Assembly: GCA_017450215.1 (NCBI GenBank)
Contig: JAFSVH010000101.1
Location: forward strand, 1,534 to 65,533
Source: Bacilli bacterium
GTDB taxonomy: Bacteria; Bacillota_I; Bacilli_A; ML615J-28; CAG-698
Length of the DNA: 64,000 bases
Direction: 5' to 3'
The notes beneath the pieces are model-generated. The model was not told the origin of the DNA and ran no database searches. It saw nothing but the letters and a program-made list of their open reading frames with translations. Shown here one piece after another: positions 267 to 23,552 of this stretch (its first letter is position 1; every line of letters starts with the position of its first letter). The position numbers were made by a program, and so were the translations under genes.

Positions 267-1784
267 TTATTTTACCTCATACATAGGTTTATTAATTATT
301 AAAGGTTTTTCAAAGTAAGTTTTTAATTGAGATGTTGCTTCTACTTTACCCCCATTTATTTTAAATATCATTATGTTAATACCTATGAAGTTATTCAAAT
401 CCAATTCATGAGGTAATTTATTTAATAAGACATTGATAATAAAATTGTTATTTCTATTAATTAAATGAACATAATTTTGTATTTCAATATTCAATAAACT
501 CTCATCATTCAAATCGTAATTACGCCTATAACTAACTGCTTTTCTACTAATAATAGTTTTACCACAATCATTTCTAATTGTAATAGGTATAAATGGATTT
601 ATATATTCTTTGTTTTTCCTATATCCATATAAATTAATAAAAATTGTAGTTCCATTCGCAAAAAAGTAATCATTCAAAAATCTTATTGATAATATTTCAT
701 TCGTAATATTTAATTTAAATTTAACAATTTCCTCGACATATTTTATTGCCAATGTTTCTTTTTTATATATATTTCTATTATTATCACTTAACCAAAAACT
801 TCCTAATGAAAATCTTTCAATATACTTAGTTATTTCTTCACAATGAAAAAACCTATCAACAATTGATATATTCCATTCTATACTACCAATATCTATAATA
901 TCATCATAAATGTATTTTATTTCATTTTTTGGAAAATATTTCAAAAATTGTAAAATGAAATCATCTATAAATAAATTATACAAATTAATCAAAACAGTTC
1001 TTACTTTATGAACAATTTTATATTTCACTGTATATTTATGTACTTCTTTAAAATTAATTTTAGTATAATTAAATTTCAAATAGTTATATAAATCTATAGC
1101 ATACTGCAATTTACATTTTTTTGGTTCTCTAATCATCGCAATATTTTCAGTAAATTCATAAAAATAAACAACCAATTGTATAAATGTAAAATCATAATTA
1201 AAAGTAAGAACATTGATATTGTTGTCTATATTTAAATACATATTTTTGTTAAAATCAAATTCTTTAAAAAAGTGATTTTCAGTTTTTATTTCAATTATAA
1301 AAGTTTCATTCATGAAAGAGACGTTCAATTTGTTTTCCCCTAAAAAATCTGTGAAGACTTCGTTTTGATCATAACAATCAAAATTACTCTTTACAATTTC
1401 CTTGAACTCTTCAATTTTAAAATCAGATCTTAAAATTATATCTATATCACCAAATTGTCTTTTCCAACCATTGTAAATAATTATCTCAAGTGGATATCCC
1501 TTATAAATCAAGAATTGCTGTCTATGTTCTTTTAAAGAAAATAAAAGCTTTTTAAAAAACATCAGGAAAATTAATCTATTTTCGGCAAATGAGTTTTTAA
1601 CTATTTCAATATTACTTAGATTAAATAAAGAACTTTCAACAAGCAAATCATAATAATGAATAAAAATTTTATGTTTAATTAGAAAATTAATAATATATTC
1701 AGTATTTATATCTACATTTTCATCAATATACAAAATATGGTTATTTCTAATCAATTCAAGAATAAACTTATCTTCCAATTTCAT
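267..1784 (-). CDS. nucleotidyltransferase-fold (pol-beta-type NTase) protein, 505 aa
   Basis: Six-frame ORF. Motif GWKRQFGDIDIILRSDF fits the hG[GS]...DxD NTase signature. It is the last gene of the tightly packed operon, 10 nt after the ABC gene. Confidence 0.55.
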   Translation of the reverse strand: MKLEDKFILELIRNNHILYIDENVDINTEYIINFLIKHKIFIHYYDLLVESSLFNLSNIEIVKNSFAENRLIFLMFFKKLLFSLKEHRQQFLIYKGYPLEIIIYNGWKRQFGDIDIILRSDFKIEEFKEIVKSNFDCYDQNEVFTDFLGENKLNVSFMNETFIIEIKTENHFFKEFDFNKNMYLNIDNNINVLTFNYDFTFIQLVVYFYEFTENIAMIREPKKCKLQYAIDLYNYLKFNYTKINFKEVHKYTVKYKIVHKVRTVLINLYNLFIDDFILQFLKYFPKNEIKYIYDDIIDIGSIEWNISIVDRFFHCEEITKYIERFSLGSFWLSDNNRNIYKKETLAIKYVEEIVKFKLNITNEILSIRFLNDYFFANGTTIFINLYGYRKNKEYINPFIPITIRNDCGKTIISRKAVSYRRNYDLNDESLLNIEIQNYVHLINRNNNFIINVLLNKLPHELDLNNFIGINIMIFKINGGKVEATSQLKTYFEKPLIINKPMYEVK

Positions 1785-1794
1785 TTATATTAAT

Positions 1795-3444
1795 CTATAA
1801 AAGAACTATATTATCAGCAAATGAATCAAATTGTGAGTCATGTGTGAAAACAATTATTGTTTTATCCTTTTTTAAAGTATGTATATATTCAATAATTTTT
1901 TTACTATTTTCATTATCAATTTCAGATGTTGGCTCATCTAAGATATAAACATTTGTTTCTTTAAGTAAAGTTCTTAATAAACAAATTCTTCTTTTTTCAC
2001 CTCCAGATAAATTAGAACTATTTAAATTAATAACAAAGTCCATTCCATTCTTCTCAATTAAACGAGTTAAATTTAATTCTCCTATAAGTATTTTCAATTT
2101 TTCTTCACTATAGTTATTATTCCCATATGTAACATTATCAATAAACGATCTATTAAACAATTGTATATCTTGAAATAAAACTCCTACAGAAGAAATATCA
2201 TATTCATAATTCTTTTCATCATTTATTAAAATTTCACCACTTTTTGGTGTTAATAATCCAAGCATTAATTTTATTAAGGTGCTTTTACCCTTACCACTCT
2301 CTGATTTAACAACAGTTATTTCATTACTATTGAATACTAAGTTTAAATTTTGATATATTTCTTTTTCACCATAATTGAATGATAAGTTTTTAATTTCAAT
2401 AATTGGAGATCTATCAATCTTTTTTATCCCATTCATTTTGACTTCATAATCACAAAGGTTTATCTCGAATAAACGGCTAAGTGCTTTATCCCCCTCAGCT
2501 AAAAGTTTAGCGTATCTACTAAAGCCTGATATAGGGGTATATAATTTTTGAACATATAAATAAGCAATAGTAAATGCACCAGCTGTTAAAATATTAATAT
2601 TTATCATATAAAATGTGACAAGTAAAACTAATACAATTCCAATCGTTTTAACAACACTAATTGTCGGAAAAAGTGCAGATAGGCTTTTATTAAGTTTAGT
2701 AGTTTGTTTGTACGAATCATTTAAATAGCTATTTGCCAAATACGATTCATTTTCTTCTTCTCTATTGATATGAACCATTTTTAAATTCTTTATTAATGAT
2801 AAAAAATAATTATTTGTATCGTCCGTAATTGATGAAATATAACCAGAGTATTTTTTAGTGGTATTTCCAATTTTAGTTGAAATGAAATAAACTGGAAACA
2901 CAAATATAATAGCTGTTAAAGCTACTTTCCAATTCCATACAAAGAAAATTATTATTATCCATATTACTTCTATAATATCTCTAATAAAACCATTAAATGG
3001 TGTTACAATAATTTGACTAGTGTATGTTATATCTTTAGTAATTCTAGTTATAAGATCGCCTTCTTTTAAAAATGAACTATCTGGATCATAATTATTAATT
3101 ATTTTTGCAAACATATCTTTTTGTACTGCTATTTTTATCAATAAACCAAATTGGGATACAAAATAACCAAAAGCTGTATTAAGGATTGAAACTATAATCA
3201 AAACTAAGCCAAAAATCAACAGTAGCAAAACTATTCTATTATCAAGTGCATTATATAATATTAAAGCCACTCCCGAAAGTTTATCAGGATTAGCAACCAT
3301 ATCTATAATATAACCTATCATTAAAGTTGGGATAGATGATAAAAAACCTGTTATTATCGATAACAAAATATACATTACAATTTTATATTTATTATTCTTA
3401 ATATATGGATATAAATTTTTAATACCTGTACAATTCAATTTCAT
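1795..3444 (-). CDS. ABC transporter permease/ATP-binding fusion (peptide-exporter type, no C39 peptidase domain)
   Basis: N-terminal 6-TM region. Walker A SGKGKST, signature LSGGEKRR, Walker B ILDEPTSEID. Overlaps the upstream gene by 4 nt (ATGA). Confidence 0.85.
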   Translation of the reverse strand: MKLNCTGIKNLYPYIKNNKYKIVMYILLSIITGFLSSIPTLMIGYIIDMVANPDKLSGVALILYNALDNRIVLLLLIFGLVLIIVSILNTAFGYFVSQFGLLIKIAVQKDMFAKIINNYDPDSSFLKEGDLITRITKDITYTSQIIVTPFNGFIRDIIEVIWIIIIFFVWNWKVALTAIIFVFPVYFISTKIGNTTKKYSGYISSITDDTNNYFLSLIKNLKMVHINREEENESYLANSYLNDSYKQTTKLNKSLSALFPTISVVKTIGIVLVLLVTFYMININILTAGAFTIAYLYVQKLYTPISGFSRYAKLLAEGDKALSRLFEINLCDYEVKMNGIKKIDRSPIIEIKNLSFNYGEKEIYQNLNLVFNSNEITVVKSESGKGKSTLIKLMLGLLTPKSGEILINDEKNYEYDISSVGVLFQDIQLFNRSFIDNVTYGNNNYSEEKLKILIGELNLTRLIEKNGMDFVINLNSSNLSGGEKRRICLLRTLLKETNVYILDEPTSEIDNENSKKIIEYIHTLKKDKTIIVFTHDSQFDSFADNIVLL

Positions 3445-4382
3445 TGATAATCACCTACCTCATTGATAAATTTAAATATCTTATCTAATTGGCTATAATC
3501 ATATTTATATGTTAATTTATAACCATTTATTTTATTTTTATCTATTAATTCCTTTATTTGTATAATTTCCTTATTGAGCTCACTTTTTGTTAATGTATCA
3601 TAATCATAAACATTTTTTAAAAAATAACAAAACAACTCTGATTTACTTATTTTTTCTATTATAGGAAAATCACTTAATTCATTATTTTCTAAAATAATAA
3701 AATTGTATTTAAAGCTTTTTTCTTTAACCCAATCACTATGATTGTAAATTTCTAAATTAATATATTTTTTATTCTCACCTAATAATGAACTATAGACACA
3801 ATTTGTATCTATACTATTAATAATATTTTTAAAACTATCCTCCCATAATCTTACAACTTTAGAACCTGCTAATATTTCAAAATTATTATTAAAAACTATT
3901 TTATCATCACTAATTAAACCATAATTATGATTTTTCACCAAATAAGATGCAATTGTTGACTTTCCCAATCCTGATTTTCCTATTAATGCAAAAACTTTAT
4001 TTTTATTATAAATAGCAGTACCATGTATAACAAAATTATTATTAAAACGTAAAAGACTTATCAGACCATTTCCCATAGAAATCCTATATAGCAACTCATT
4101 TCTTTCAGGAAAATCATTTTTCTTATCATAATATATTAATATATTATCTTTGTCTATTTTCATCTCAATTCCAGTCTTGTAAAAAAACACTTTTTCTTTT
4201 TTATTAGAAAATATTTTTGAAATTTTATTTTCTATTAATTCACTTTTTTCTTTATACTTAAATGCTCTTTTAGATAGCATTATTCTTATTGTTTTTGAAT
4301 ATGGGTGCTGAACAGTGTCGAAATTATTGATATTAAACTCTGTCAACACCATCATATCATATATATAGCATACATTGTCCAT
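3441..4382 (-). CDS. HPr kinase C-terminal-domain-like P-loop kinase (HprK-related)
   Basis: HGTAIYNKNKVFALIGKSGLGKSTIASYL resembles the HPrK/P P-loop. The ORF track starts at TTG 4403. I prefer ATG 4382, which is preceded by GAGGAGAAA. Confidence 0.6.
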   Translation of the reverse strand: MDNVCYIYDMMVLTEFNINNFDTVQHPYSKTIRIMLSKRAFKYKEKSELIENKISKIFSNKKEKVFFYKTGIEMKIDKDNILIYYDKKNDFPERNELLYRISMGNGLISLLRFNNNFVIHGTAIYNKNKVFALIGKSGLGKSTIASYLVKNHNYGLISDDKIVFNNNFEILAGSKVVRLWEDSFKNIINSIDTNCVYSSLLGENKKYINLEIYNHSDWVKEKSFKYNFIILENNELSDFPIIEKISKSELFCYFLKNVYDYDTLTKSELNKEIIQIKELIDKNKINGYKLTYKYDYSQLDKIFKFINEVGDYQ

Positions 4383-4555
4383 TTTCTCCTCTTCTCGAAT
4401 CAACTCTATATTTTACATTGTATTTAAAATATTCAATATCAAAGAATCACATAATAATTTTTTTAAACACAGTTATTTAAGAAATCCTACTCTAAAAAAC
4501 ATATAGCTTTATTTATATTTTACTTGAATAACCTAATTAAAAATATACATCACGA

Positions 4556-5905
4556 TTAATCTTGAGATTTAATAATATTTAGTATATTTGTCCCTTTTTG
4601 GCAATACTTTTTTCTCAATTTTAAAACGAAGTTTTTAAGTTCGGGCATTAAAATTTCATTGTGAACTTTATGAGAATTATTTACGAACAAATTTATTTCT
4701 ATAATATCAAGTAAATGTGAATAATTGTTTATAAATTCAAGAGTTTTGTTTCTATCCAAATTAGATTCACAAAAATAACCAAACAATAATGAAACATGTG
4801 TAATTATATTAAATCTTTTTAAGTTGGTTAATATTGGTACTATACTCTCAATTTTTATTTTTTTATTAAATAGCATCAACATTTTTTTTGAATATGATTC
4901 TATTCCTAAAAAAAGTTTTATACACCCTGCTTTTTTTATTATTTTTACGAATTCCTCACTTTGAAATTTAACTCCAAATCGTGTTGAAGCCATCCACGTT
5001 ATTTTTATATTTCTTTCCAATATTTCTTTAGAAAAAATTATTAAATAATTTTCATGAATAAAACTATCTACAAATTTAAATTTTTTTATTTTATATTTTT
5101 TATGAAGATATAATATTTCATCAATCAATATAGTGATTGTTTTTATATGTGAAGTCCAATTAAATTTAGATTCATAGCAAAATTCACACTTTCCATAATA
5201 GCATTTACTAGATGTCCTTATAGGAAAATAATAAAAACTATCTCTTTTATCAATATTAAAATTCAAGTCAAGCAAACTATTGTTTTGCACATCTTTTGTT
5301 GAGAAAATATGTTCTCTAAATAGATAACAGTTAGAAATATTGTCTAAAGAAAACAAGCCTTTGAATGTATATTTTTTCTCAATTACTATATTTTTAAAAA
5401 ATAAATATAAATTTTTCAAAAAAGATATATAGTTAACATATAAAAAGATGTTTTCGAACTCTATATTAGTAAATTTTGTTTTTAAGAATATTTCACCTAA
5501 AAGATAAATATTAATTCTTTCTTTATCAATTTGTTTTGCAATGACTAATGAAATAATTAAACTATCAAAATCATAAGCATATAGAAATACTATATGTTCA
5601 CTTAATGGTATTCTTTCAAAAAAATGTAATACTTGGAATACCTTATATGTTTCATCTACTAGTGTCTGAATATTTAATTCTTTGTTAAATATTATCCTAT
5701 TTTCATCGAATTTAAATAAATGTTTATACTTTGTTTTTATTATTGTAAAGGTATGTGGCGAATATAATTTAAACATATTTTCTATATTATTTATTTCCGT
5801 GATATTTATATTAAATAAATTACTTATTTTTATTAAAATCAAATAATCATAATAATATAGATTGCTCATACCATTATAAACATACAAAGAGTATTTATAA
5901 TTCAT
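4556..5905 (-). CDS. radical SAM protein with N-terminal ~230-aa domain (class-B/B12-binding-like architecture) and non-canonical CX4CX2C motif
   Basis: SSKCYYGKCEFCYES, read from the DNA as TGC TAT TAT GGA AAG TGT GAA TTT TGC. Downstream LFLGIESYSKKML resembles the GxES motif of B12-rSAM enzymes. Confidence 0.7.
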   Translation of the reverse strand: MNYKYSLYVYNGMSNLYYYDYLILIKISNLFNINITEINNIENMFKLYSPHTFTIIKTKYKHLFKFDENRIIFNKELNIQTLVDETYKVFQVLHFFERIPLSEHIVFLYAYDFDSLIISLVIAKQIDKERINIYLLGEIFLKTKFTNIEFENIFLYVNYISFLKNLYLFFKNIVIEKKYTFKGLFSLDNISNCYLFREHIFSTKDVQNNSLLDLNFNIDKRDSFYYFPIRTSSKCYYGKCEFCYESKFNWTSHIKTITILIDEILYLHKKYKIKKFKFVDSFIHENYLIIFSKEILERNIKITWMASTRFGVKFQSEEFVKIIKKAGCIKLFLGIESYSKKMLMLFNKKIKIESIVPILTNLKRFNIITHVSLLFGYFCESNLDRNKTLEFINNYSHLLDIIEINLFVNNSHKVHNEILMPELKNFVLKLRKKYCQKGTNILNIIKSQD

Positions 5906-6833
5906 ATTTATACACTATTCCCAAAACATTGTTATTATTGATTTCAGTCTTTTCATTAGAATTATCACCTTTAGTTATAATAGAATCTTTTCCTATTGAT
6001 ATTATTCTATGAACAACTAAAACTTTATTACTATTATAAAGTATTACATCTCCTTTCTTCAAATTTGTAATTTCTACTTTTTTAATCAAAATGTCATCAC
6101 CATCCTTTAAAAAAGGAGACATACTTGAGCCATAAATTTTTGTTATTATTTTCTTAGTCTTATACAATATCTTTTTAACTAATTCTACTGAGATATAAGG
6201 TAAAACATTAATATTATTAAAGACATATACCGCTTTTTTGTATGCTATATCACAGCAATTTAGTTTTTCATCTTCAGTTAAATAAAGTTTTTTTGTGAAA
6301 GCATAGATATACGCAGGACAAGCATCACATAAATTAACATAGTTGCAATTATGGCATTTTGAGTTAGGATTTTCAGTATATGCATCCAAAAAAACCCCAA
6401 TCTTTTCCCATGCTTCCGAAAATGATAATTCATTTAAATCAATTTTACAAAAATCTCCATAAAGACATGGTTTTAAGATTAAATTTGAATTAATATAAAA
6501 AGAATATCTTCCACCTCCACAATCAAAACATTTTTCACGTCTTTCATTCTTATAATCAATTTGCCAATTGTGTATTAAATTATCATCTTGTGACAACAGT
6601 ATATTTACAATTTTGCCTGAAGAACATTGAAAATCAACTATTGAATCATCTCCATTCAATGATGGCCACAAATTATAATCAAAACGAAATTCAATCTCCA
6701 TTTTTTTTGCCAATGAAGACACTTTTTCAAACATACTATAATTATAATTTGTTAAAACCATCTTTATACCAACATTAATTTCCTTTTCCTTCAACTTCTT
6801 TAAGTTATCCATAATAATATCGTATGGTTTCAA
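5895..6833 (-). CDS. SPASM-domain protein lacking a radical SAM CxxxCxxC triad, fused to a C-terminal SipW/ER-type (S26B) signal-peptidase-like domain
   Basis: Seven-Cys SPASM pattern CFDCGGG...PC...FC...C.NC....C..C. C-terminus has GSSMSPFL...GDVILYNSN...VHRIISIGKDSIITKGDNSN, matching the SM(E/S)P Ser box, the His box and the KGDNN box of SipW-type peptidases. No CxxxCxxC and no TM segment. Confidence 0.65.
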   Translation of the reverse strand: MKPYDIIMDNLKKLKEKEINVGIKMVLTNYNYSMFEKVSSLAKKMEIEFRFDYNLWPSLNGDDSIVDFQCSSGKIVNILLSQDDNLIHNWQIDYKNERREKCFDCGGGRYSFYINSNLILKPCLYGDFCKIDLNELSFSEAWEKIGVFLDAYTENPNSKCHNCNYVNLCDACPAYIYAFTKKLYLTEDEKLNCCDIAYKKAVYVFNNINVLPYISVELVKKILYKTKKIITKIYGSSMSPFLKDGDDILIKKVEITNLKKGDVILYNSNKVLVVHRIISIGKDSIITKGDNSNEKTEINNNNVLGIVYKYEL

Positions 6834-6907
6834 TAAAGGATTACATCCATAATAATCTTCATTTTTCTAAATGTATCATGTGTTTTTACCTCATTCCTTA
6901 TAACAAA

Positions 6908-7387
6908 TTACTTCTTAATTTCCAGTGTAATTGTTACTTTATCACTTGTTGAAAGTAATTCTTTTATTTTATTCTCACTTAAATTGATACGACCAAGTTT
7001 AGTAAATGACCAACTATTATTACCATAATACAAACATATTTGATTAGAATTATAAAGTACTATATCACCTGGACCTACATTCATTCTTTCATCATTACTA
7101 ACTAATGTAAATCCTAGTAAACCTGTTTGTTCAAAATTACCATATTCATGTAATTCAATAGTTAATTCATTATTAATATGATTCATTAGATCTTTTACTG
7201 ATGCATTATCATACCATATTACATCAATTACATCACTTCCAATTTTTAATATCATTTTAACCTCTTCTGCTTCTTCTTCATTATTTGTTATATCATTAGT
7301 TGGTTTCGTGTTTTCTGTATCTTCATTATTATAACTACATCCAACTAATAATAACAATAAAACAAATATTAATATTATTCTTTTCAT
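6908..7387 (-). CDS. lipoprotein, cyclophilin-like (PF04126-type) domain
   Basis: Signal peptide with lipobox LLVGC, then a D/E/N-rich linker. The domain pattern IGSDVIDVIWYDNASVKDL...GPGDIVLYNSNQICLYYG matches the cyclophilin-like family. An own promoter and RBS AGGAGA lie upstream. Confidence 0.55.
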   Translation of the reverse strand: MKRIILIFVLLLLLVGCSYNNEDTENTKPTNDITNNEEEAEEVKMILKIGSDVIDVIWYDNASVKDLMNHINNELTIELHEYGNFEQTGLLGFTLVSNDERMNVGPGDIVLYNSNQICLYYGNNSWSFTKLGRINLSENKIKELLSTSDKVTITLEIKK

Positions 7388-7443
7388 ATTGTATTTCTCC
7401 TATGTCTATTTTACCACAATATCTTTCTTTTTCCCATAGATAA

Positions 7444-7480
7444 CAAAAAAAGCCAGTCTTGTGGACTGACAGTTTTTATT
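7444..7480 (-). terminator. bidirectional hairpin terminator after the AKR operon
   Basis: CCAGTC-ttgtg-GACTG hairpin at 7453-7469, flanked by an A-run (7445-7451) and a T-run (7473-7480). Confidence 0.45.
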
Positions 7481-8321
7481 TTGCTTCATATGTAGGATGC
7501 CATTTAGCATATTCTTCAACACGATCATCATCTGCTTCATATCTACGCTTTCCTACATTTAATTTTGCCATTTTTTTCATATCATCATTATCTAACTTGA
7601 AATCAAATATATTAATATTATCTTTAATATGATCTACATTCTTAGAACCAGGAATTACAATAAATCCCATTTGATTATGCCATTTTAATACTACTTGAGC
7701 AGTTGATTTATTATGCTTTTTCGCTATACCCTTTACTATCTCACTATCAAGAAGTTCAGCAGTCATTCCTTTTCCACCTAGTGGATACCAGCTCATTATT
7801 CTAATGTTTTCTTTTTCTGTTATTTTTCTTAGATTATCTTGTGGGAAAAATGGATGACATTCAACTTGAATAACTTGAGGAATAATATCATATTCATCTA
7901 ATACTTCATTGATATGTTTTTCAAAATTAGAAATACCAATTGATTTAATTTTACCTTCTTTATAAGCTTTTACTAACTGATCATATCCATGACGCCAATT
8001 AGATGTTGCTTGATGAATAAATAATAAATCAATATAGTCTACTCCAAGTCTTTCTAGTGTTTCATCAACTGCGTTAGGATTTTCGTATTCAGAAGCCCAT
8101 AGTTTAGTAGACAAAAAGATATCTTCTCTTTTGATACCACTATCTTTCATAGCACGCCCAACTGCTCTTTCATTACAATATGCATTTGCAGTATCAATTA
8201 ACTTGTAACCTAATTTTAATGCATTTAATACACTATTATAAGCATCTTTTGGTTCAAGTAGGAATGTCCCAATTCCTACACTTGGCATTAATACATTGTT
8301 GTTTAATTTAAATTCTTTCAT
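7476..8321 (-). CDS. aldo/keto reductase (2,5-diketo-D-gluconate reductase-like)
   Basis: Motifs LMPSVGIGTF, IDTANAYCNE and IPGSKN typical of the AKR family. Confidence 0.9.
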   Translation of the reverse strand: MKEFKLNNNVLMPSVGIGTFLLEPKDAYNSVLNALKLGYKLIDTANAYCNERAVGRAMKDSGIKREDIFLSTKLWASEYENPNAVDETLERLGVDYIDLLFIHQATSNWRHGYDQLVKAYKEGKIKSIGISNFEKHINEVLDEYDIIPQVIQVECHPFFPQDNLRKITEKENIRIMSWYPLGGKGMTAELLDSEIVKGIAKKHNKSTAQVVLKWHNQMGFIVIPGSKNVDHIKDNINIFDFKLDNDDMKKMAKLNVGKRRYEADDDRVEEYAKWHPTYEAK

Positions 8322-8322
8322 C

Positions 8323-8835
8323 TTATAAATTCTCCTTTATCCATTTTTCTACTTTGTCTTTTGATTGATATACATTTGATCCAACAATGGCTAGTCCACT
8401 TTTAATTGTTGCATTTGGTGCATATTTTTTAATATCTCTTACAATACTAGCTAAGCCACTTCCTTCATGCGTTGAAAATGGCATAATTACTTTACCATCA
8501 AAATTTAATCTAGAAAGAAGAGTAAACATTGGTTGTGGTAATGTCCCCCAATATATTGGTCCACCAATAAAGATAACATCATAATTACTTATATCATCTA
8601 AATAATTCTTTAATTCTGGAAGTTCACCATTTCTTTGTTCTATCTTAGCTTCTTCAATACAAGTTCTATAATCTTTAGCATAATCGATCTTTCTTTCAAC
8701 TTTGAATAGATCAGCTCCCGTAATATCCCTAATCTCCTCCGCAACAACTTCTGTATTCCCTTTAGTGATGTACCGCATTGCACCACCAAAATAATTTTCA
8801 TCAATTCTTGAAAAATATATTACAAGTGATTTCAT
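8323..8835 (-). CDS. flavodoxin-family protein
   Basis: MKSLVIYFSRIDENYFGG N-terminus and ~170 aa flavodoxin-like fold. Stop/start adjacent to the AKR gene. Confidence 0.7.
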   Translation of the reverse strand: MKSLVIYFSRIDENYFGGAMRYITKGNTEVVAEEIRDITGADLFKVERKIDYAKDYRTCIEEAKIEQRNGELPELKNYLDDISNYDVIFIGGPIYWGTLPQPMFTLLSRLNFDGKVIMPFSTHEGSGLASIVRDIKKYAPNATIKSGLAIVGSNVYQSKDKVEKWIKENL

Positions 8836-8846
8836 TGTTTAACTCC

Positions 8847-9383
8847 TTATACATTTAATCCCATTTGGTATGCTTCAATAAATGAAGCTTTTTCTTTTAT
8901 TTCACCTTTTTGATAAACACCAATTCCATAAATAATGCCTTTTTCAACTGCACCTTCTACACAATCAGCATAACCTCTAAAACATTCAATAGTACGCTCT
9001 TGTGAAGTTTTATCGTCATCGGCACAAGTTACAATATAATAGAATTCTTTATTTTTAACTTCTTCCCAACGAGCAACAGTTCGATCAATTAATGCTTTTA
9101 ACTGTGCATCAATAGAATAAAAATAAACAGGACTTGCTAAAACTATTACATCGCTATCTATCATCTTTTGTAAAATAGGAGCCATATCATCTTTAATAGC
9201 ACAAATACCATTTGACTTTTGACAATAATAACAAGCAGTACAGTATCCAATTTTCTTTTCCGATACTCTTATCTTTTCAACATCATGCCCTGCATCCTTT
9301 GCTCCACGCATGAATTCATCACATAAAAGATCTGAATTTCCACCCTTTCTAGGGCTACCTGATAATATTAATACTTTCTTCAT
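8847..9383 (-). CDS. NADPH-dependent FMN reductase-like / iron-sulfur flavoprotein (Isf-like)
   Basis: MKKVLILSGSPRKGGNS flavodoxin-like N-terminus plus compact Cys motif CTACYYCQKSNGIC (CX2CX2CX6C), as in iron-sulfur flavoproteins. Confidence 0.7.
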   Translation of the reverse strand: MKKVLILSGSPRKGGNSDLLCDEFMRGAKDAGHDVEKIRVSEKKIGYCTACYYCQKSNGICAIKDDMAPILQKMIDSDVIVLASPVYFYSIDAQLKALIDRTVARWEEVKNKEFYYIVTCADDDKTSQERTIECFRGYADCVEGAVEKGIIYGIGVYQKGEIKEKASFIEAYQMGLNV

Positions 9384-9386
9384 TAT

Positions 9387-9914
9387 TTATTTCTCCTTAT
9401 ATTTATTTATATAATTTAATACTATTTCTTCTACTTCTATGGCTCCATCAGTAAAGCACCATAAATTAAGGGCACCATAATATATACTTACTATTTCTTT
9501 TGCGATTTCTTCATTATATAATTCTTTAACATATGCTAAATCATAAGCAAGTTTAGTCTTACCATGAAAGCCACCTAATACTCCATGACTAAACCATACT
9601 TGACACATCTTTAAGCCACTTTTCTTTATTCTTTTAATTGAAGTTATAAGAAAATATTCTAATTTCTCATATTTAGAATAATCACCTTCTAATTTAGAAT
9701 CATCAAAATACATGCTTATTTGTTTTTCAATTAAATCTTCTTTGGATTCAAAATGAATATAGAATGCTCCTTTCGACACTCCTGCTTCTTTTGTAATTTC
9801 TGATACTGAAACATTATCGAATCCTTTTTCATTAATAAGCTTTAATGCTACTTCAATTATTTTGTCTTTATTTTCATTAGATTTTGCTGTTCTTGATTCA
9901 TTATTGTATTTCAT
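9387..9914 (-). CDS. TetR/AcrR family transcriptional regulator
   Basis: N-terminal HTH FDNVSVSEITKEAGVSKGAFYIHF. First gene of the TetR-Isf-flavodoxin-AKR operon. Confidence 0.8.
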   Translation of the reverse strand: MKYNNESRTAKSNENKDKIIEVALKLINEKGFDNVSVSEITKEAGVSKGAFYIHFESKEDLIEKQISMYFDDSKLEGDYSKYEKLEYFLITSIKRIKKSGLKMCQVWFSHGVLGGFHGKTKLAYDLAYVKELYNEEIAKEIVSIYYGALNLWCFTDGAIEVEEIVLNYINKYKEK

Positions 9915-9980
9915 AACTACATTATATCATTTAATTGACCAGTAGTCAACTAATTTATTTTATTTTTTAAAAAAATGATT

Positions 9981-10081
9981 TTTTTTGATTTTTGATTTTG
10001 CGACTTTTTGTGCACGATTTTGGCGGTGATTATTTTTGATTTTTGATTTTACGACTTTTTGTGCACGGTTTTGGCGGTGAT
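9981..10081. repeat. two tandem copies of a ~51-bp direct repeat (~94% identical)
   Basis: ttttttgatttttgattttgcgactttttgtgcacgattttggcggtgat at 9981-10030, then tatttttgatttttgattttacgactttttgtgcacggttttggcggtgat at 10031-10081. Confidence 0.85.
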
Positions 10082-10117
10082 TTTTCATACAAGCGTTAAA
10101 CTTGATTTACTATTTAT

Positions 10118-10175
10118 TTGGTTCAATTCTCGTTGTCTTTACAGGTTCGATTCTCGTTTCACTCAAAAATTTTCA
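10118..10175 (+). repeat. two partial plus-strand copies of the tRNA-Gly T-arm/acceptor 3' segment
   Basis: GGTTCaATTCTCGTTgtc and GGTTCGATTCTCGTTtcac versus tRNA-Gly 3' sequence GAGTTCGATTCTCGTTACC. They are inverted relative to the intact tRNA at 10331-10405. Confidence 0.5.
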
Positions 10176-10238
10176 ATGCTTCGACTCCTTGGAGCGTTGT
10201 CCATAGTGCATTGGACAAAAAGTAGTTTTTTAGAGCAT

Positions 10239-10279
10239 AAAAAAAGAGCTGAAACTTAGTTTTTTGCTAAATTTCAGCT
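10239..10279 (-). terminator. hairpin terminator downstream of tRNA-Gly
   Basis: AGCTGAAA / TTTCAGCT stem with a 17-nt loop. Preceded on plus by AAAAAAA, which is a U-run after the stem on minus. Confidence 0.45.
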
Positions 10280-10330
10280 TATTTTCACTAAATATCGCTT
10301 ATTTATAAAGGACATTTAGACCAATGCACT

Positions 10331-10405
10331 TGGAGCAGGTAACGAGAATCGAACTCGCATCTTCGCCATGGCAAGGCGGTATATTAGCCGTTGTACTATA
10401 CCTGC
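10331..10405 (-). tRNA. tRNA-Gly (anticodon GCC)
   Basis: Hand fold of the 75-nt minus-strand sequence. Acceptor stem GCAGGTA/TACCTGC, T-arm GCGAG-TTCGATT-CTCGT, anticodon loop TTGCCAT, 3' TCCA. The D-stem is weak (3 bp). Confidence 0.75.
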
Positions 10406-10422
10406 ATTTCACTAACATAAGC

Positions 10423-10451
10423 ATTTTAACATATCTAAATCATAAATGCAA
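10423..10451 (-). promoter_or_regulatory. sigma-A-type promoter for tRNA-Gly (TTGCAT-17-TAAAAT)
   Basis: Minus-strand TTGCAT (10451-10446), 17-nt spacer, TAAAAT (10428-10423), then ~17 nt to the tRNA 5' end. Confidence 0.45.
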
Positions 10452-10551
10452 GAAAAAATAATTTTTTTTATTCATTATAAATCTTTAATATTATTGTTTT
10501 CATCATAAATAATAAAATATGTTATAATGGTTTCATATTATAGGTGAAAAC

Positions 10552-11133
10552 ATGCAATATTATAATGATTTACCAAATGGTTATGTCGTATATAAAATAA
10601 TCGATGCTGAAAAGAAAAAAACTGCTATATATTTTAGTATTGGTGGAATAATCATAACCATTATTTCTTTAATTTTACTAATCATAATTAAAAAAATAGA
10701 ATTTACTTTTGCTATCAATATAAAAAATGCTCTTGGCATTCTTCTTTTTGGCTTTATCTTGATAGCTAATATATTTGTACATGAATTAACCCATGGACTA
10801 TTCTACAAATTATTCACGAAACAAAAATTAAAATTTGGTTTCACTAAATTTAATGCTTATTGTGGTGCTCCTAATATCTACATGAAGAGAAATCCTATGA
10901 TCATTATATCTCTTGCACCTTTTATTATTTATTCAATAATAAGCATCTTATTAATAATTATACTTCCACCTAATCTTACTTGCTTCTTTGTAATTATTTA
11001 TTTTTCAAATCACATTGGTGGTTGTATTGGCGATATTTATGTTGCAATACAATTAATATTCAATGTGAATAAAAATGCACTAGTAAATGATACAGGACAG
11101 AAACAAACAATATATAAAAGAAACGCTTTATAA
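10552..11133 (+). CDS. polytopic membrane protein with HExxH motif (putative membrane zinc metalloprotease, DUF3267-like)
   Basis: Several hydrophobic segments and FVHELTHGLFYKLF. RBS AGGTGA and an extended -10 TGTTATAAT lie upstream. Confidence 0.5.
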   Translation: MQYYNDLPNGYVVYKIIDAEKKKTAIYFSIGGIIITIISLILLIIIKKIEFTFAINIKNALGILLFGFILIANIFVHELTHGLFYKLFTKQKLKFGFTKFNAYCGAPNIYMKRNPMIIISLAPFIIYSIISILLIIILPPNLTCFFVIIYFSNHIGGCIGDIYVAIQLIFNVNKNALVNDTGQKQTIYKRNAL

Positions 11134-11196
11134 TAAATTATTAATAATAAATTATTTATAATTAATTATTTATTTTTTATAAGATACTCATAAGAA

Positions 11197-11258
11197 ACGC
11201 TTTAATTAAAGATGCAAAATATCAATTATAATTTTGCACATTAATTAAAGCGCCTTTT
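11197..11258 (+). terminator. long inverted repeat / terminator after the 10552-11133 gene
   Basis: Arms ACGCTTTAATTAAAGATGCAAAAT and ATTTTGCACATTAATTAAAGCG with a 10-nt loop, followed by CCTTTT. Confidence 0.45.
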
Positions 11259-11398
11259 AAATTGTCAAAAAAGATATTAAATTATTATATTAATTGAATA
11301 ATATGATTATAGTGGGCTTAATCATAATATCAAGTAGTAAGAACTTAATTTCAATAATCAGTTTTTATATTAAACAAATGTATCTTTATTTGTTATTT

Positions 11399-11959
11399 TT
11401 AATTATTATTTTTCTTTTTCTTATTATTAGTTTCTTTAGTTTCTTTCTCAGTAGTTAAATCTACATCAATAAAATCTTCATCGCCATATTTGCCATCGTT
11501 GCCATCTGATTCTTCTTTTTCTTTTACACCATTTTTGCTATCATAAATAGCAATAATCTTTTTCATTTCTTCTAAAGTTGGTTCATCAAATTCTTCTGGC
11601 CCATCATCGCGAAGCTTCAAATCCTTAAATTTTTCATAGAATGATTTTAAATGAATGAAAATGATTCTTTCACCGACAACTTCATTTGTATAGATAGTCT
11701 TATCGCCAACTGTTTGTTGACGGCAAACTAATCTTCCTTTTACACCCACAATATCACCTTTAGCACAATACTCATAAATATTTTGAGCATAAACATTCCA
11801 AAATGTCACAGGAATAAAATCACTCTTATATTCATTAGTATCCATTTCTCTAAAATTCCTTTGAACCTTTAAAACAACATTAATAACATCAAATTGATTA
11901 ATATGTTTTAAATTCAAATCATTTGCGATAGCTCCTACTAAAATTATATTATTAATCAT
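11399..11959 (-). CDS. ssb: single-stranded DNA-binding protein (SSB-like, OB fold) with non-canonical K/N-rich C-terminus
   Basis: MINNIILVGAIANDLNLK...VTFWNVYAQNIYEYCAKGDIVGVKGRL resembles the SSB OB fold. Acidic linker, but the tail ends NNKKKKNNN rather than DDDIPF. ATG 11959 with AAAGGAGG is preferred over track start 11992. Confidence 0.55.
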   Translation of the reverse strand: MINNIILVGAIANDLNLKHINQFDVINVVLKVQRNFREMDTNEYKSDFIPVTFWNVYAQNIYEYCAKGDIVGVKGRLVCRQQTVGDKTIYTNEVVGERIIFIHLKSFYEKFKDLKLRDDGPEEFDEPTLEEMKKIIAIYDSKNGVKEKEESDGNDGKYGDEDFIDVDLTTEKETKETNNKKKKNNN

Positions 11960-12243
11960 GTTTTTTCCTCCTTTCACTTGAATTATAAACAACTAAAAAA
12001 TATAACTCAAACCAGAAATGGTACTCAAAAACAGTTTTATAAAATGAAAAATGGCGTTATTCTATAAAAAAAAGAGATAAGTTAACTTATCCCTTTTTTG
12101 ATAATAATCATTTTATAAAAAAGATTAATTTAAAAAGTATTTTTAAAAATACACTTTTTTATTTATTCTTTTTTTATCAAACTATTATAAACAATTATAA
12201 ATAATTAAAAACAATTAAAAACAATTATAAATAATTGTTATGA

Positions 12244-13575
12244 TTATTTTCCATCATTTTTCTTACTTTTACCAAACACATAATTAATATTATTAACATC
12301 AATATATTTAGTAATATCCCGAAGATCATTTAATGAAATATAATGATTATATTCATCAAATAGATTTATTCCATCAATTGAATATTCTAAGCAATCTGTG
12401 ATTGTAGTTGATAAATCATTAAAGTCTCGGATTGTTGAACCGATGGATGCTCTATTTAGTGCTTGTACATATTTATCATCAAGTTCTACTTCATCTAAAT
12501 TTAAGAATACATCATTTAAAAACTTCACAAGTTCTTCTGGTTTATGAGATAAACCATTAAACCTAATTGAAGGGATGCCTGCTTCATAAATAAATGAGCA
12601 GCCAAAACCTAATAAAGCTAAATCATTATCCATAATTGTTTGAAAATTAGCAGATGAATGTCCAAATAAAACTTCACATAATAAATCATATTTACAAATA
12701 TTGACTAATAAATTGTTATTATCATCTTCATTATTATAAAAGTTTGGTTTTACTCTTACAGCATAAGCAACAACAGTATCAACTATGTCAATCTTCATTT
12801 CATCATCTTTTTTAATTACTTCATTGCTAATTTCATCATTAATAACTTTTGCTTTAAAGCTAGGATAAATCGGCTTTTTCCTTTGATTTTCTTCAATCAT
12901 CATATAGATATCTTGATAATCAAAATTACCAATAATGGCAATAGTCATATTTGATGGAACATAGAAATGATTATAAACTTGATTTAAGACATCTTCATCA
13001 ATCTTATTCACATCTTCAACACTTCCAGTTACATCATGCGAATAGCTAACATCACCAAAATTATTTAATTTCAATCTACTTCTCACTTTTTGGAAAGGTG
13101 AATCTTGATACATCAAGATTTCTTGAATAATAATATCCCTTTCAATATCAATATTATCTTTCCTAAAATATGGAGTTTGTACAAAATCAAGAATGTAATT
13201 CAAAGCAATCTGAAAATTATCACTTCCATTAACTTGATATATCGTTTTATCATAAGAGGTAAAAGCATTACTTTCAATTCCAAACATCGCAAGATAATCA
13301 CTTGCATTAGTGATTTCTCCTTCCATCTCAAACATTTGATGTTCTAAGAAATGAGCAACACCATAAGGAATATTATAAATTTTACCATCTACTTCATATT
13401 TAGTAACAGCACCTCCAAAATTACAGCCAAAATTAATTGCATAATTTTGGAATCCTTCCTTTTTCACAAATATAACCTTAAGTCCATTAAATACTTCCCA
13501 ACTATATAGAGATGTATTGATATTTTCATATTTTTTTAAAGAAACATCTTTATTAAAAACTATATTCTTACTCAT
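12244..13575 (-). CDS. M16 family zinc peptidase (catalytic subunit, inverted HxxEH motif)
   Basis: VAHFLEHQMFEMEG. 8-nt overlap with the upstream partner gene. Confidence 0.8.
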   Translation of the reverse strand: MSKNIVFNKDVSLKKYENINTSLYSWEVFNGLKVIFVKKEGFQNYAINFGCNFGGAVTKYEVDGKIYNIPYGVAHFLEHQMFEMEGEITNASDYLAMFGIESNAFTSYDKTIYQVNGSDNFQIALNYILDFVQTPYFRKDNIDIERDIIIQEILMYQDSPFQKVRSRLKLNNFGDVSYSHDVTGSVEDVNKIDEDVLNQVYNHFYVPSNMTIAIIGNFDYQDIYMMIEENQRKKPIYPSFKAKVINDEISNEVIKKDDEMKIDIVDTVVAYAVRVKPNFYNNEDDNNNLLVNICKYDLLCEVLFGHSSANFQTIMDNDLALLGFGCSFIYEAGIPSIRFNGLSHKPEELVKFLNDVFLNLDEVELDDKYVQALNRASIGSTIRDFNDLSTTITDCLEYSIDGINLFDEYNHYISLNDLRDITKYIDVNNINYVFGKSKKNDGK

Positions 13576-14884
13576 TATTTTCGCCTAAACCCTTAAGAAC
13601 ATAAATAGTATCTAACCATAAATGATCTTTAATTTTAGAAATATCATCTAGTGTAACAAGCAATGAATCATTATATAATTCTTCTAATGTTCTTCTATCA
13701 GTTAAATAATATTTTAGATTATTACTTACAATATATTCTTGATTATCAATGGAATTAATGTATTCATTCTTAAATTCACTCTTTGCTTCATTAAGTAAAT
13801 TTTCAAAATATTCTCTATTCTTATTAATATTATGAATATTATAGCTATTCAAGCAATCTTTGATTGCCTTAATTGCTTTATTGATGTTATTAGAATCAAC
13901 TCCAGCATAAACAGTACAAAGATTTCTCACTGGGTTAGCTGATGCATAGATTGTATAAGCTAAGCCTAATTTTTCTCTCACTTTTCTAAACAAGCTTGAA
14001 AATGGACTTTCACCAAACATCAAGCAAAATAAGATATATGCAGCATATAATTCATGACGATAGAAAAGATCTGTCCTATATCCCATATATATATGAGATT
14101 GCTTAATTTCTAATTTTTCAACGTATCTCTTTGTTTTTATTATTCTATATAAATTTTTATCTTCATATTCAATATTGACATTATTAGTCCTTAAATTAAG
14201 TTTATTTAATAGTTTATTAACCTTATCAACACTAACATTACCAACAACAGAAACGATTATATGCGAATTATTAATAAAGTCTAAATAATAATCATAAAGC
14301 TCATAAGCTTTAATTTTCTTTATCTTATTAATATTCATCTTTTGAATTAATGGAAATTCATCTTTCTTTGTCATCTTAGACAAGAATCTCATTGCTCCAT
14401 ATCTTCTTTTATTATTGCTCTCATTGAGAATAAGATTAATTCTGTTTTCTATCACTTCATCAAAGTCTTTCTTGCAAAATTCAGTCCTACCTCGTGAATT
14501 CACTCTAACATGAGGGTTATAAATCATATTATTAAGTAAATCAAAGCATTCATCATATAAGTCATCACAATCAATAATATTTTCGCTAATGCATTCAACA
14601 CTACATTTTAAGATTTGAGTCTTGTAATTCATACTTTGAGCAGAATATACACCTGCAGAATATAAATCATACAATTTTCTTGTCTGTGCTTCGGTTGATG
14701 TATATTTACCATTACATTTAGTCAATAATTCTGAAACTAAAGATAAATAATTATTATCATCGTATTTATTAATATAATAAATATTAAAAACAGTAGTTGT
14801 AAATTTATTTGTCTTTTCAATACATACATCAATATCTTTATATTTATATTTATTTTTATTAGTATTCTTTTCTTGTTTTTCCAT
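13568..14884 (-). CDS. M16 family peptidase-like protein (non-catalytic partner, no HxxEH)
   Basis: Length and pairing with the adjacent M16 gene. Lacks the zinc motif. Confidence 0.6.
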   Translation of the reverse strand: MEKQEKNTNKNKYKYKDIDVCIEKTNKFTTTVFNIYYINKYDDNNYLSLVSELLTKCNGKYTSTEAQTRKLYDLYSAGVYSAQSMNYKTQILKCSVECISENIIDCDDLYDECFDLLNNMIYNPHVRVNSRGRTEFCKKDFDEVIENRINLILNESNNKRRYGAMRFLSKMTKKDEFPLIQKMNINKIKKIKAYELYDYYLDFINNSHIIVSVVGNVSVDKVNKLLNKLNLRTNNVNIEYEDKNLYRIIKTKRYVEKLEIKQSHIYMGYRTDLFYRHELYAAYILFCLMFGESPFSSLFRKVREKLGLAYTIYASANPVRNLCTVYAGVDSNNINKAIKAIKDCLNSYNIHNINKNREYFENLLNEAKSEFKNEYINSIDNQEYIVSNNLKYYLTDRRTLEELYNDSLLVTLDDISKIKDHLWLDTIYVLKGLGENNE

Positions 14885-14956
14885 AAAACATCCTATATTC
14901 TTTTAAAACAACAGCGTAAATGCGCTGTTGTTTCACAATAAATTATGTAAAGTAGA

Positions 14957-15676
14957 TTATGCAATTGCAGCTTCTAGTGCAATTTCCATCATCTTATTAA
15001 ATGAATTTTGTCTTTCTTCAGCTGTTGTAACATCACTTGAAACAAATGAATCAGAAACAGTTAATAAGCATGCTGCTTCTTTATTTAAATATTTTGCATT
15101 TGCAAATAAAGCAAAGCTTTCCATTTCTACTGCTACGCAATTATATTTATTTACAACATCATCAAAGATGTTACCTTGATGACGATAGAACACATCTGAC
15201 GAATGAATTCTACCTTCAATTAAATCATAGCCTAATTTCTTGCTAGCTTTTCTAATTATATTATTTAATTCTTCACTAGCCTTTAAGGCATTGTCTTTAT
15301 ATCCATAAGCAATGGATGCAAAATTTGATTCACTATAAGCATCAGTTGCAAGAATGCAATCATAAATTTTTGCATCTTTTACATATGATCCACAAGAACC
15401 AATTCTAATTATTCTCTTTACATCATAGAATGCAAATAATTCGTATGAATAAATACCAATACTAGGCATACCCATTCCACTACCCATAACTGAAACTTTC
15501 TTTCCTTTGTAATAACCAGTAAAACCTAACATATTACGAACTGAATTAATTTGCTTAACATCTGTTAAATATTTATTAGCAATAACCTTTGCTCTCAAAG
15601 GATCACCAGGCATCAATACAGTTTCACCTAAATCTTCTTTATTTAATATTTCAATATGAGGTGTAGGAATAGCCAT
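14957..15676 (-). CDS. deoD: purine nucleoside phosphorylase, DeoD-type
   Basis: VLMPGDPLRAKVIANKYL, GMGMPSIGIYSYEL and VAVEMES match DeoD. Confidence 0.9.
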   Translation of the reverse strand: MAIPTPHIEILNKEDLGETVLMPGDPLRAKVIANKYLTDVKQINSVRNMLGFTGYYKGKKVSVMGSGMGMPSIGIYSYELFAFYDVKRIIRIGSCGSYVKDAKIYDCILATDAYSESNFASIAYGYKDNALKASEELNNIIRKASKKLGYDLIEGRIHSSDVFYRHQGNIFDDVVNKYNCVAVEMESFALFANAKYLNKEAACLLTVSDSFVSSDVTTAEERQNSFNKMMEIALEAAIA

Positions 15677-16338
15677 TATTTATCTCCTCCAACAATACTA
15701 ACTCCATTAGAAGTACCAATTCTAGTTGCACCAGCAGCAACCATAACAGCAGCATCGTAATTAGTTCTTACACCACCACTAGCCTTAACTTCCATGTTTT
15801 CGTTTATTTTTGATACTGTCTCTTTCATTAATCTAACATCTTCTTCTGTTGCACCACCAGAACCAAATCCAGTCGATGTCTTAACAAAATTAGCACCAGC
15901 TTTAGTTGCAGCTTTACATACTTCTATTTTTTCTTCATCAGTCAAATAGCAAGTTTCAATAATAACTTTAACAGTTCTTCCACCACTACAGCCAACAACA
16001 CCAGCAATTTCATGTTCTATGTATTTATAATCATGTTCTTTTGCTTTACCAATATTGATAACCATATCAATTTCATCAGCACCTTCGTTGATAGCATCAA
16101 CAGTCTCAGCCCATTTCACATCCATAGTGTTAGCACCAAGAGGAAAACCAATAACAGTACAAACTAAAACATCACTGTCCTTTAATAATTCTTTGGCAAG
16201 TTTTACATTTGCAGGATTAACACAAACACTCTTAAATCCATATTCTTTTGCTTCTTCACACAACTTCTTAATATCATCTTTTGTAGCAAAAGCTTTAAGC
16301 AATGTATGATCAATATATTTTGGATTGATATTATTCAT
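15676..16338 (-). CDS. deoC: deoxyribose-phosphate aldolase
   Basis: [34 protein letters not shown] and VKTSTGF (Schiff-base Lys) match DeoC. Confidence 0.9.
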
Positions 16339-16352
16339 TCTTATTTCTCCTT

Positions 16353-17243: not shown

Positions 17244-17254
17244 TTAGGTTTTTA

Positions 17255-23348: not shown

Positions 23349-23546
23349 TTTAAAGAATTTATTATAATAGTATCCAGAAGACCGATAATACTGATGTGAA
23401 CCACAGTTCACCACGGTGGGTCTCTCTCTTGGTATAATTAAAGGATTCTTATCTAAAATAAGCTTTCAACAGCATTATACCCTCAACACCCTAAATATCT
23501 ATTGTTCGGTTCGCATATTAAGTACAAACTCGAGAATTCCAGATAC
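23349..23546 (-). ncRNA. candidate ~240-nt structured small RNA or attenuator-type leader (class undetermined)
   Basis: Delimited by the consensus-like promoter at 23553-23581 and the terminator at 23305-23348. Contains hairpin GTGAAC-TGTG-GTTCAC. No ORF and no canonical T-box sequence found. Confidence 0.3.
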
Positions 23547-23552
23547 AATTAG

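Follow-up and report, generated by a model that had tools for sequence, protein, structure and literature searches.

A 64,000-nucleotide (nt) stretch of a contig from an uncultured Bacilli bacterium (JAFSVH010000101.1; hereafter the window, whose positions are used throughout) carries a 312-amino acid (aa) open reading frame (ORF) that an initial annotation had taken for a SPASM domain lacking a radical S-adenosylmethionine (rSAM) core, fused to a soluble signal peptidase-like domain. Our analysis shows that this gene is very probably a 5'-truncated remnant, comprising codons 124-445, of a gene for an rSAM-SPASM-S26B peptidase fusion, and that it lies in a decaying biosynthetic cluster for a ribosomally made and post-translationally modified peptide (RiPP). 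The apparent anomaly is thereby removed: the window holds no SPASM-only enzyme, only a decayed biosynthetic cluster one product of which has been named "signal peptidase I" (the GenBank label is 'MAG: signal peptidase I [Bacilli bacterium]', MAG denoting a metagenome-assembled genome).

The window gene is cut at codon 124

The remnant ORF heads a run of five minus-strand genes that are closely spaced or overlapping, and is separated by 74 nt from the stop of the upstream gene, the same gap that had been reported before. Its Cys residues lie at positions 70, 102, 105, 123, 129, 160, 163, 169, 172, 193 and 194, and a motif check over all 312 aa found no CxxxCxxC (CX3CX2C) sequence or variant of it. 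Residues 4-180 align with the mycofactocin maturase model of NCBIfam (339 positions) over its positions 134-320; since the alignment starts at model position 134 the ORF begins mid-barrel, which upholds the earlier view that only the last part of an rSAM barrel is present and that the CxxxCxxC motif is missing.

The SPASM Cys pattern, by contrast with the missing core, is complete. The seven residues C105, C123, C160, C163, C169, C172 and C194, recognized as a seven-Cys SPASM pattern from the start, are each at least 90% conserved in 87 rSAM/SPASM relatives, follow the two-auxiliary-cluster arrangement C-x(9-17)-C ... C-x2-C-x5-C-x2/3-C ... C, and correspond to C238, C256, C293, C296, C302, C305 and C327 of P0001, the closest full-length homologue. 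Residues 105-187 also match the SPASM-bearing C-termini of AhbD and NirJ2 (NCBIfam). The SPASM model TIGR04085 itself scores 18.4 bits on the remnant ORF, below its cutoff of 27, and the modelled fold of the full-length homologue still matches SPASM enzymes. In all, the sequence features that had been described for the remnant ORF are present, well past chance.

Only four close relatives were found among the 5.8 billion proteins searched (P0001, P0002, P0003 and P0004, at 96%, 77%, 48% and 52% identity, respectively). All four begin approximately 133 residues earlier than the remnant and carry the rSAM domain PF04055, the cluster-binding motif CNFNCPHC (also found in the full-length P0010 and P0073) and TGGE. 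The homologues at 96%, 77% and 48% identity are each 445 aa long, with both motifs in their N-terminal 123 residues. An AlphaFold2 model of full-length P0001, built from the 87-sequence alignment, has a mean predicted local distance difference test (pLDDT) score of 94.1 and a predicted template modelling (pTM) score of 0.81; its best matching folds in the PDB are CteB, SuiB, SkfB, anSME and PqqE, and the nearest solved structure by sequence is SkfB (E 1e-15). In P0001 the TGGE motif occupies residues 66-69, and the strands E17-21, E62-66, E89-94 and E114-118 all fall within the first 123 residues. The cluster loop and the GGE motif thus both lie in this segment, along with four strands of the barrel, and the remnant that lacks it would be unable to bind either SAM or the radical-SAM cluster. 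Hence the proposal that a SPASM module without a radical-SAM core was a designed architecture could not be sustained, the intact homologues being 445-aa proteins with CNFNCPHC and TGGE, of which the window copy has been cut at codon 124. The accompanying idea that SPASM alone binds the peptide is also unnecessary, for in the intact loci a separate PqqD-family protein gene precedes that of the maturase.

At the DNA level homology to the intact loci L002, L029 and L001 breaks sharply at window position 6864, that is at codon 124. The homology extends 31 nt 5' of the TTG start, and the translation upstream of this TTG, '*KNEDYYGCNPLL', still matches P0001 residues 124-134. Searches with tblastn and blastn found no match to the precursor, to PqqD or to the maturase N-terminus anywhere in the 64-kb window. 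The lost DNA, made up of the precursor and PqqD genes together with 369 nt of the maturase gene, amounts to 1,471 nt or more; only this minimum can be given, as the 630 upstream nt of sister contig L029 likewise match nothing in the window. The gene accordingly bears the marks of truncation, with 312 aa against 445 aa in its orthologues, a sharp breakpoint, an in-frame TAG upstream and no evident ribosome-binding site (no Shine-Dalgarno-like sequence precedes either TTG6833 or ATG6812). Relatives of the neighbouring aldo-keto reductase, drawn from uncultured Bacilli and Acholeplasmatales MAGs and from Clostridium sp. CAG:288 (closest 71-74% identical), share the TetR-flavodoxin-aldo-keto reductase block and not the junction, and are therefore uninformative as to the site before the deletion.

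The C-terminal domain is an anchor-less S26B-like peptidase homologue

Sequence comparison supports the C-terminal domain as a homologue of the endoplasmic reticulum (ER)/archaeal-type (S26B-like) Ser/His/Asp peptidases that has no membrane anchor. The assignment to this type, made in the initial annotation from the SMSP, VHRI and KGDN motifs, is corroborated by the model TIGR02228 (sigpep_I_arch), which scores 55.6 bits on the whole ORF and 58.9 bits on the domain alone against a cutoff of 51.85. The suggested profile check of this half as S26/S24 was otherwise a near miss, in that the Pfam families Peptidase_S24 (23.0 against a gathering score of 23.3) and Peptidase_S26 (22.4 against 22.9) both fell slightly short on the remnant ORF. 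More distant fused or stand-alone relatives scored 32-42 bits with TIGR02228, under the cutoff.

Across 8-10 aligned fused, stand-alone and SipW-like sequences the Ser, the His (not Lys) and the Asp are invariant, so that conservation of the proposed catalytic Ser and His is borne out and extends to a third residue. In these forms the spacing is 38-40 residues from Ser to His and 15-17 from His to Asp. The triad Ser47/His87/Asp106 of SipW is needed for activity (PMC8767453), and the counterparts in the remnant are Ser237, His275 and Asp290. No membrane anchor was detected in the remnant ORF, in agreement with the initial annotation; its maximal 19-residue Kyte-Doolittle mean is 1.22, with values of 1.0-1.6 in the fusions versus 2.65-2.94 in the free-standing SipW-like proteins P0005-P0007.

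A profile of the peptidase domain best matched the catalytic subunits of the human signal-peptidase complex, SEC11C (E 2e-11) and SEC11A (E 6e-11), with alignments that cover the SM-P, HR and GDN boxes. A structural model of the domain (pLDDT 84.9) retrieved SpsB, the LexA C-domain, SEC11A/C, SipA and UmuD' with Foldseek (probability 1.00 each, E ~1e-3), all members of clan SF, and the predicted fold is the beta-barrel of this clan. In the full-length P0001 model low confidence is confined to the linker at residues 342-345, which argues that the peptidase is an independently folded C-terminal domain.

The fusion recurs in relatives

The fusion of SPASM and peptidase is genuine and not the product of a frameshift. 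A continuous rSAM-SPASM-peptidase ORF of 436-445 aa is present in P0001, P0290, P0002, P0003, P0010 and P0073, spanning 27-96% identity (33% for P0010, and 27% for P0073, which is from a GC-rich organism), and the merger of two genes by a sequencing frameshift that the initial annotation had flagged can thereby be discounted. In two loci (L004 and L005) a frameshift within an A-run splits the fusion, and the peptidase 'TNIYGDSMIPVFHNGDKITIKK...' carries on in a different frame; the mutation may be genuine and inactivating, or may reflect misreading of the homopolymer in sequencing. The ORF called there (L004 3660-3800, 73 aa; the same protein in L005) starts at a Met directly after the catalytic Ser. 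In the more distantly related L018-L024 a separate gene for a 112-121-aa peptidase overlaps the end of a 347-351-aa rSAM/SPASM gene and is followed by a second rSAM gene; these stand-alone peptidases match the hidden Markov model (HMM) of the peptidase domain at E 2e-19 and 4e-16. A set of approximately 580-aa rSAM/SPASM proteins among the top-ranking representatives had been suspected to be further fusions, and was dismissed when the peptidase HMM gave no match.

When 185,579 GTDB species-representative genomes were scanned with the family alignment, the 40 pattern matches included no relative, and no NCBIfam model spans the fusion. The fusion had been thought to be undescribed, and indeed no description of an rSAM-signal peptidase fusion turned up in full-text searches of the searchable literature, in which the 'S26' matches appeared unrelated by their titles and abstracts. 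The component families are all known (rSAM/SPASM maturase, PqqD-type RiPP recognition element (RRE), clan SF peptidase, kinase/nucleotidyltransferase pair and ABC exporter). What appears to be new is the presence in a RiPP cluster of an anchor-less S26B-type domain, either as part of the maturase or next to it, absence from databases and literature being no proof of this.

Status of the window copy and alternative readings

Most probably the window copy has lost its function and is a recent pseudogene at the head of an otherwise intact operon tail. In the absence of the Fe-S/SAM site, the substrate and the chaperone, no radical chemistry would be expected of it. The allele differs by only 1.7% from the intact sister alleles, which argues that the deletion is recent, and the remnant and the four genes downstream of it have the same lengths as in L001.

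Several observations weigh against so simple a verdict. Neither the remaining 312 codons nor the four downstream genes contain a stop codon or frameshift, and these undamaged frames, together with the occurrence of the allele in at least nine contigs, imply that the loss is very recent or that the tail is still useful. With L002 as sister and L001 as outgroup, the polarised substitutions on the window branch are 4 non-synonymous and 0 synonymous (8 and 2 on the L002 branch), too few to show relaxed selection. No terminator-like site was found between the remnant and the upstream lipoprotein gene, making read-through transcription possible, and translation might start at TTG6833 or ATG6812. A precursor or PqqD gene might also be located elsewhere in the genome, beyond the 64-kb window. 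Finally, peptidase activity, cleavage site and cross-link chemistry are all putative.

As to transcription, a terminator-like hairpin followed by a T-run is found at 7452..7470, between the aldo-keto reductase gene and that of the cyclophilin-like lipoprotein. With a hairpin at this place and none between the lipoprotein gene and the remnant, transcription from the lipoprotein promoter may run on into the remnant operon. A promoter scan gave sites no more numerous than in shuffled sequence.

These points bear most directly on the possibility that the gene is truncated yet useful, a peptidase made from TTG6833 or ATG6812 acting with the downstream enzymes on a peptide encoded elsewhere. The undamaged frames and the missing upstream terminator would both suit it, as would the modelled peptidase domain, which lies behind a flexible linker and is confidently folded on its own, and the natural stand-alone versions of 112-121 aa. 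We nevertheless judge this unlikely, because an evident ribosome-binding site is lacking, the 64 kb hold no precursor or PqqD gene, half a TIM barrel with an exposed core would be likely to misfold, and a very recent deletion (the sisters being 98.3% identical) explains the intact frames equally well.

Far less probable is the possibility that the protein is a purpose-built SPASM-only peptide-binding module carrying a leader peptidase, without a radical-SAM core in its ancestry. An intact ORF without CxxxCxxC, annotated in GenBank and present in at least nine contigs, might be expected of such an enzyme. However, all nine contigs read represent one clone, 100% identical across the region; the sister alleles at 96-98% identity encode 445 aa with the full core; the homology runs past the TTG and ends at codon 124 beside an in-frame stop; and no other SPASM-plus-peptidase protein without an rSAM core occurs among the best 150 matches from 1.84 billion cluster representatives.

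Least credible of all is that an artefact lies behind the feature, whether an upstream chimeric join made in assembly or a frameshift merging separate SPASM and peptidase genes: although MAGs are prone to misjoins, and the peptidase is a separate gene in L018-L024 and is split from its maturase by the A-run in L004 and L005, four independent assemblies that come from different samples (L025-L028) agree at 100% over the junction and the surrounding 7.4 kb, so that the junction cannot be ascribed to assembly, and five proteins, the most divergent at 27% identity, keep the fusion in one continuous ORF. We therefore retain the reading of the window gene as the remnant of a three-part maturase gene.

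Cluster genes, intact loci and precursors

The features of the remnant and of the genes downstream of it are collected in Table 1.

Table 1. Coordinates of the truncated maturase gene, its domains and catalytic residues, the deletion junction and the remaining cluster genes in the 64,000-nt window.
Feature	Position	Strand	Basis or remark
Remnant ORF, 312 aa, TTG start	5895..6833	-	Identical to GenBank MBQ7277115.1
SPASM region, residues 102-194, seven conserved Cys	6252..6530	-	NCBIfam matches, Cys conservation
Anchor-less S26B-like peptidase domain (homologue), residues ~213-312	5898..6197	-	TIGR02228, motifs, domain model
Ser237, in GSSMSP	6125-6123	-	Motif
His275, in VHRI	6011-6009	-	Motif
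Asp290, in KGDN	5966-5964	-	Motif
DNA homology to intact gene, codon 124 to stop	5895..6864	-	98.3% to L002/L029, 83.8% to L001
Deletion junction, 43 nt without match in intact loci	6865..6907	-	In-frame TAG 6869-6867; abuts stop of cyclophilin-like lipoprotein gene
Second radical-SAM gene, 449 aa	4556..5905	-	Related to class-B enzymes; overlaps remnant by 11 nt
HprK-related kinase homologue, P-loop	3441..4403	-	Weak TIGR04352 and Hpr_kinase_C matches
ABC exporter, 549 aa, transmembrane and ATPase domains, no C39	1795..3444	-	Domain search
NTP_transf_5-like nucleotidyltransferase homologue, 505 aa, last gene of cluster	267..1784	-	Domain search

In the intact loci L001, L003, L004, L006, L007 and L029 a small ORF of 33-40 codons is followed by a PqqD-family gene and then by the maturase gene. 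Precursor and PqqD genes are thus found in every intact relative, and neither is found in the window. The full order is precursor, PqqD, rSAM/SPASM with mini-S26B peptidase and second rSAM, after which an HprK-like kinase, a nucleotidyltransferase and an ABC exporter often follow.

The precursors include MKKEEYVKPILVKVNFNEDVKVFHACKSYQNDSDSCYS (L001), MKKEYMKPIVIKINLNEDVKIFHACNAFQSDSDSCYS (L003), MKKSYIKPVVTVVNLCENLSVFSGCLMWADDADSCCS (L006), MKKVYVKPEVKIIDLRKDFSLFSGCNTYNSDADSCYS (L019), MYVKPTLVVIDLTEEIPVFTACNSYENDSNSCY (L021) and ...VKKTYEKPAVIVIDLTKDMAIFTACNNFVNDANSCYADVN (L007). They are approximately 37 aa long and well conserved across very divergent clusters, with a leader of the form KK-x-Y-x-KP... 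and a conserved 13-residue core, C-x2-[YFW]-x2-D-[SA]-[DN]-S-C-[YC]-S, that contains two invariant Cys. An F-x-[A/G] sequence is invariant directly before the first of these Cys. Most precursors of clusters with a kinase and nucleotidyltransferase have a C-terminal Ser (including those of L001, L003 and L004), although the L018 and L021 precursors end in Tyr in clusters that carry both enzymes. The sister-allele precursor of L029 (631-747) ends in ...SCYN, not ...SCYS, in a cluster otherwise 98% identical, and would escape C-terminal modification if the kinase targets a C-terminal Ser.

The second rSAM enzyme has a non-canonical Cx4Cx2C motif in place of CX3CX2C (CYYGKCEFC in the window; CY[YF][GR]KCxFC in 5/5 homologues, these being the window gene, L001 4508-5854, L003 2366-3727, L004 3951-5261 and L006 4700-6058). 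Conservation is poor over its N-terminal ~200 residues, where Pfam yields no B12-binding match, although its core resembles class-B enzymes such as ApyD, PhpK and BchE.

A larger variant of the cluster is seen in L018 and L021-L024, with two ABC ATPase genes upstream and a stand-alone peptidase of 120/121 aa. It also has two added rSAM genes, one encoding a B12-binding domain, as well as genes for an HprK/ScmC-like protein, a UvrD-like helicase and NTP_transf_5. In L021-L023 the cluster adjoins phage-type integrase genes, which suggests a mobile island. In the window the cluster (267..6864) has a GC content of 22.2% versus 27.9% in the flank (6865..20000), which is consistent with horizontal acquisition, and this AT-richness together with the integrases beside related clusters would fit a mobile accessory island under loss.

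Proposed history and pathway

We propose that this uncultured Bacilli lineage underwent a deletion or rearrangement, 1.47 kb or more in size, that took the promoter-proximal precursor gene, the PqqD gene and maturase codons 1-123, the codons that would have held the CX3CX2C cluster site and the GGE SAM-binding motif, and joined the rest of the gene to the 3' flank of the cyclophilin-like lipoprotein gene. The product of the intact gene would be a three-part RiPP maturase in which a radical-SAM core and a SPASM domain are followed by a soluble S26B-like Ser/His/Asp peptidase domain.

In the intact clusters PqqD would bind the precursor of ~37 aa; the Y-x-K-P leader motif and the presence of a PqqD protein argue for RRE-mediated recognition. 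The SkfB/CteB-like rSAM/SPASM domain would then cross-link the precursor at its two conserved Cys, and the combination of two invariant Cys with an enzyme of this type argues for thioether or related cross-links. After further modification by the second rSAM enzyme, the fused or adjacent mini-S26B peptidase would cut off the leader in the cytoplasm, probably after F-x-[A/G]. S26 enzymes favour a small residue at -1, and it is on this ground that the site is proposed, the site itself being a guess. Where a kinase and nucleotidyltransferase are present the C-terminal Ser might be tailored: in lasso precursors this residue is phosphorylated by HprK-like kinases, and the phosphate so attached is glycosylated by NTP_transf_5-type enzymes (PMC8498205). 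Lastly, the C39-less ABC transporter would export the product. The initial annotation had seen in a leader peptidase the explanation for an exporter without C39; the missing C39 domain and the RiPP character of the cluster both stand, and the former is compatible with a dedicated cytoplasmic peptidase.

We put at about even the chance that the intact relatives constitute an undescribed RiPP family in which an anchor-less S26B homologue, fused or encoded adjacently as a 112-121-aa protein, serves as the cytoplasmic leader peptidase, the two-Cys core is processed further by the Cx4Cx2C second rSAM enzyme, and the products of some clusters are phospho- or glyco-tailored at a C-terminal Ser. What these clusters, a small group from gut metagenomes, have in common is the pairing of an SkfB/CteB-like maturase with a soluble S26B-type peptidase. 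If the latter is a leader peptidase it would represent a new class of RiPP protease and a compact candidate tool for leader removal, and would mean that the ER-type signal-peptidase fold has been recruited to a cytoplasmic role. The 13-residue two-Cys core and the Cx4Cx2C enzyme would be tractable targets for heterologous expression.

Other features of the window

At 9976..10082, between a TetR-family gene and a tRNA-Gly gene, a 51-nt unit is directly repeated in tandem (2.1 copies, 94% match), which produces a spurious 42-aa ORF; the tRNA gene is a single tRNA-Gly(GCC) at 10331..10405 on the minus strand. A 6S RNA was detected at 23367..23548 on the minus strand (Rfam RF00013, 48.5 bits against a gathering score of 46.4). 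A stretch at ~31018..31323, also on the minus strand, has weak similarity (27% identity, E 0.001) to the N-terminal rSAM core of the maturase family, and presumably belongs to an unrelated housekeeping radical-SAM gene.

Comparison with known systems

The intact family shares with SkfB, CteB, SuiB and AlbA the CX3CX2C and GGE motifs, the partial TIM barrel and the seven-Cys SPASM domain, and also resembles them in acting beside a short Cys-containing precursor and a PqqD-type RRE. It differs from these enzymes in that its RRE is a separate protein and not an N-terminal domain, and in that it has an S26B-like domain of ~100 residues at the C-terminus; the window copy differs further in lacking the whole third of the protein that binds SAM and the cluster.

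The peptidase domain has the boxes G-x-S-M-x-P, [VI]-H-R-I and K-G-D-N in common with the S26B enzymes (SipW of B. subtilis, SEC11 and archaeal SPase I). In contrast to those signal peptidases it has neither an N- nor a C-terminal anchor, it ends only ~22 residues after the Asp, where the free-standing forms run on for 80-120, it is joined to a cytoplasmic Fe-S enzyme or encoded next to one, and its presumed substrate is a RiPP leader, not a Sec signal peptide. A precedent for an anchor-less S26 enzyme exists in SodX, the maturation protease of nickel superoxide dismutase, which takes an N-terminal pro-peptide off a cytoplasmic protein. The window domain matches positions 2-79 of the 90-position model for this small soluble S26 protease (TIGR02754) at 29.5-32 bits, yet this is far under the cutoff of 63.25, and genomic context and substrate are different.

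With the clusters for Firmicutes lasso peptides such as paeninodin and pseudomycoidin, the RiPP clusters described here share an HprK-like kinase together with NTP_transf_5, a PqqD-family RRE and an ABC exporter, as well as a Y-x-x-P leader motif and a C-terminal Ser on the precursor. Unlike the lasso clusters they contain no lasso cyclase or B2 cysteine protease, and in their place have two rSAM enzymes and an S26-type peptidase.

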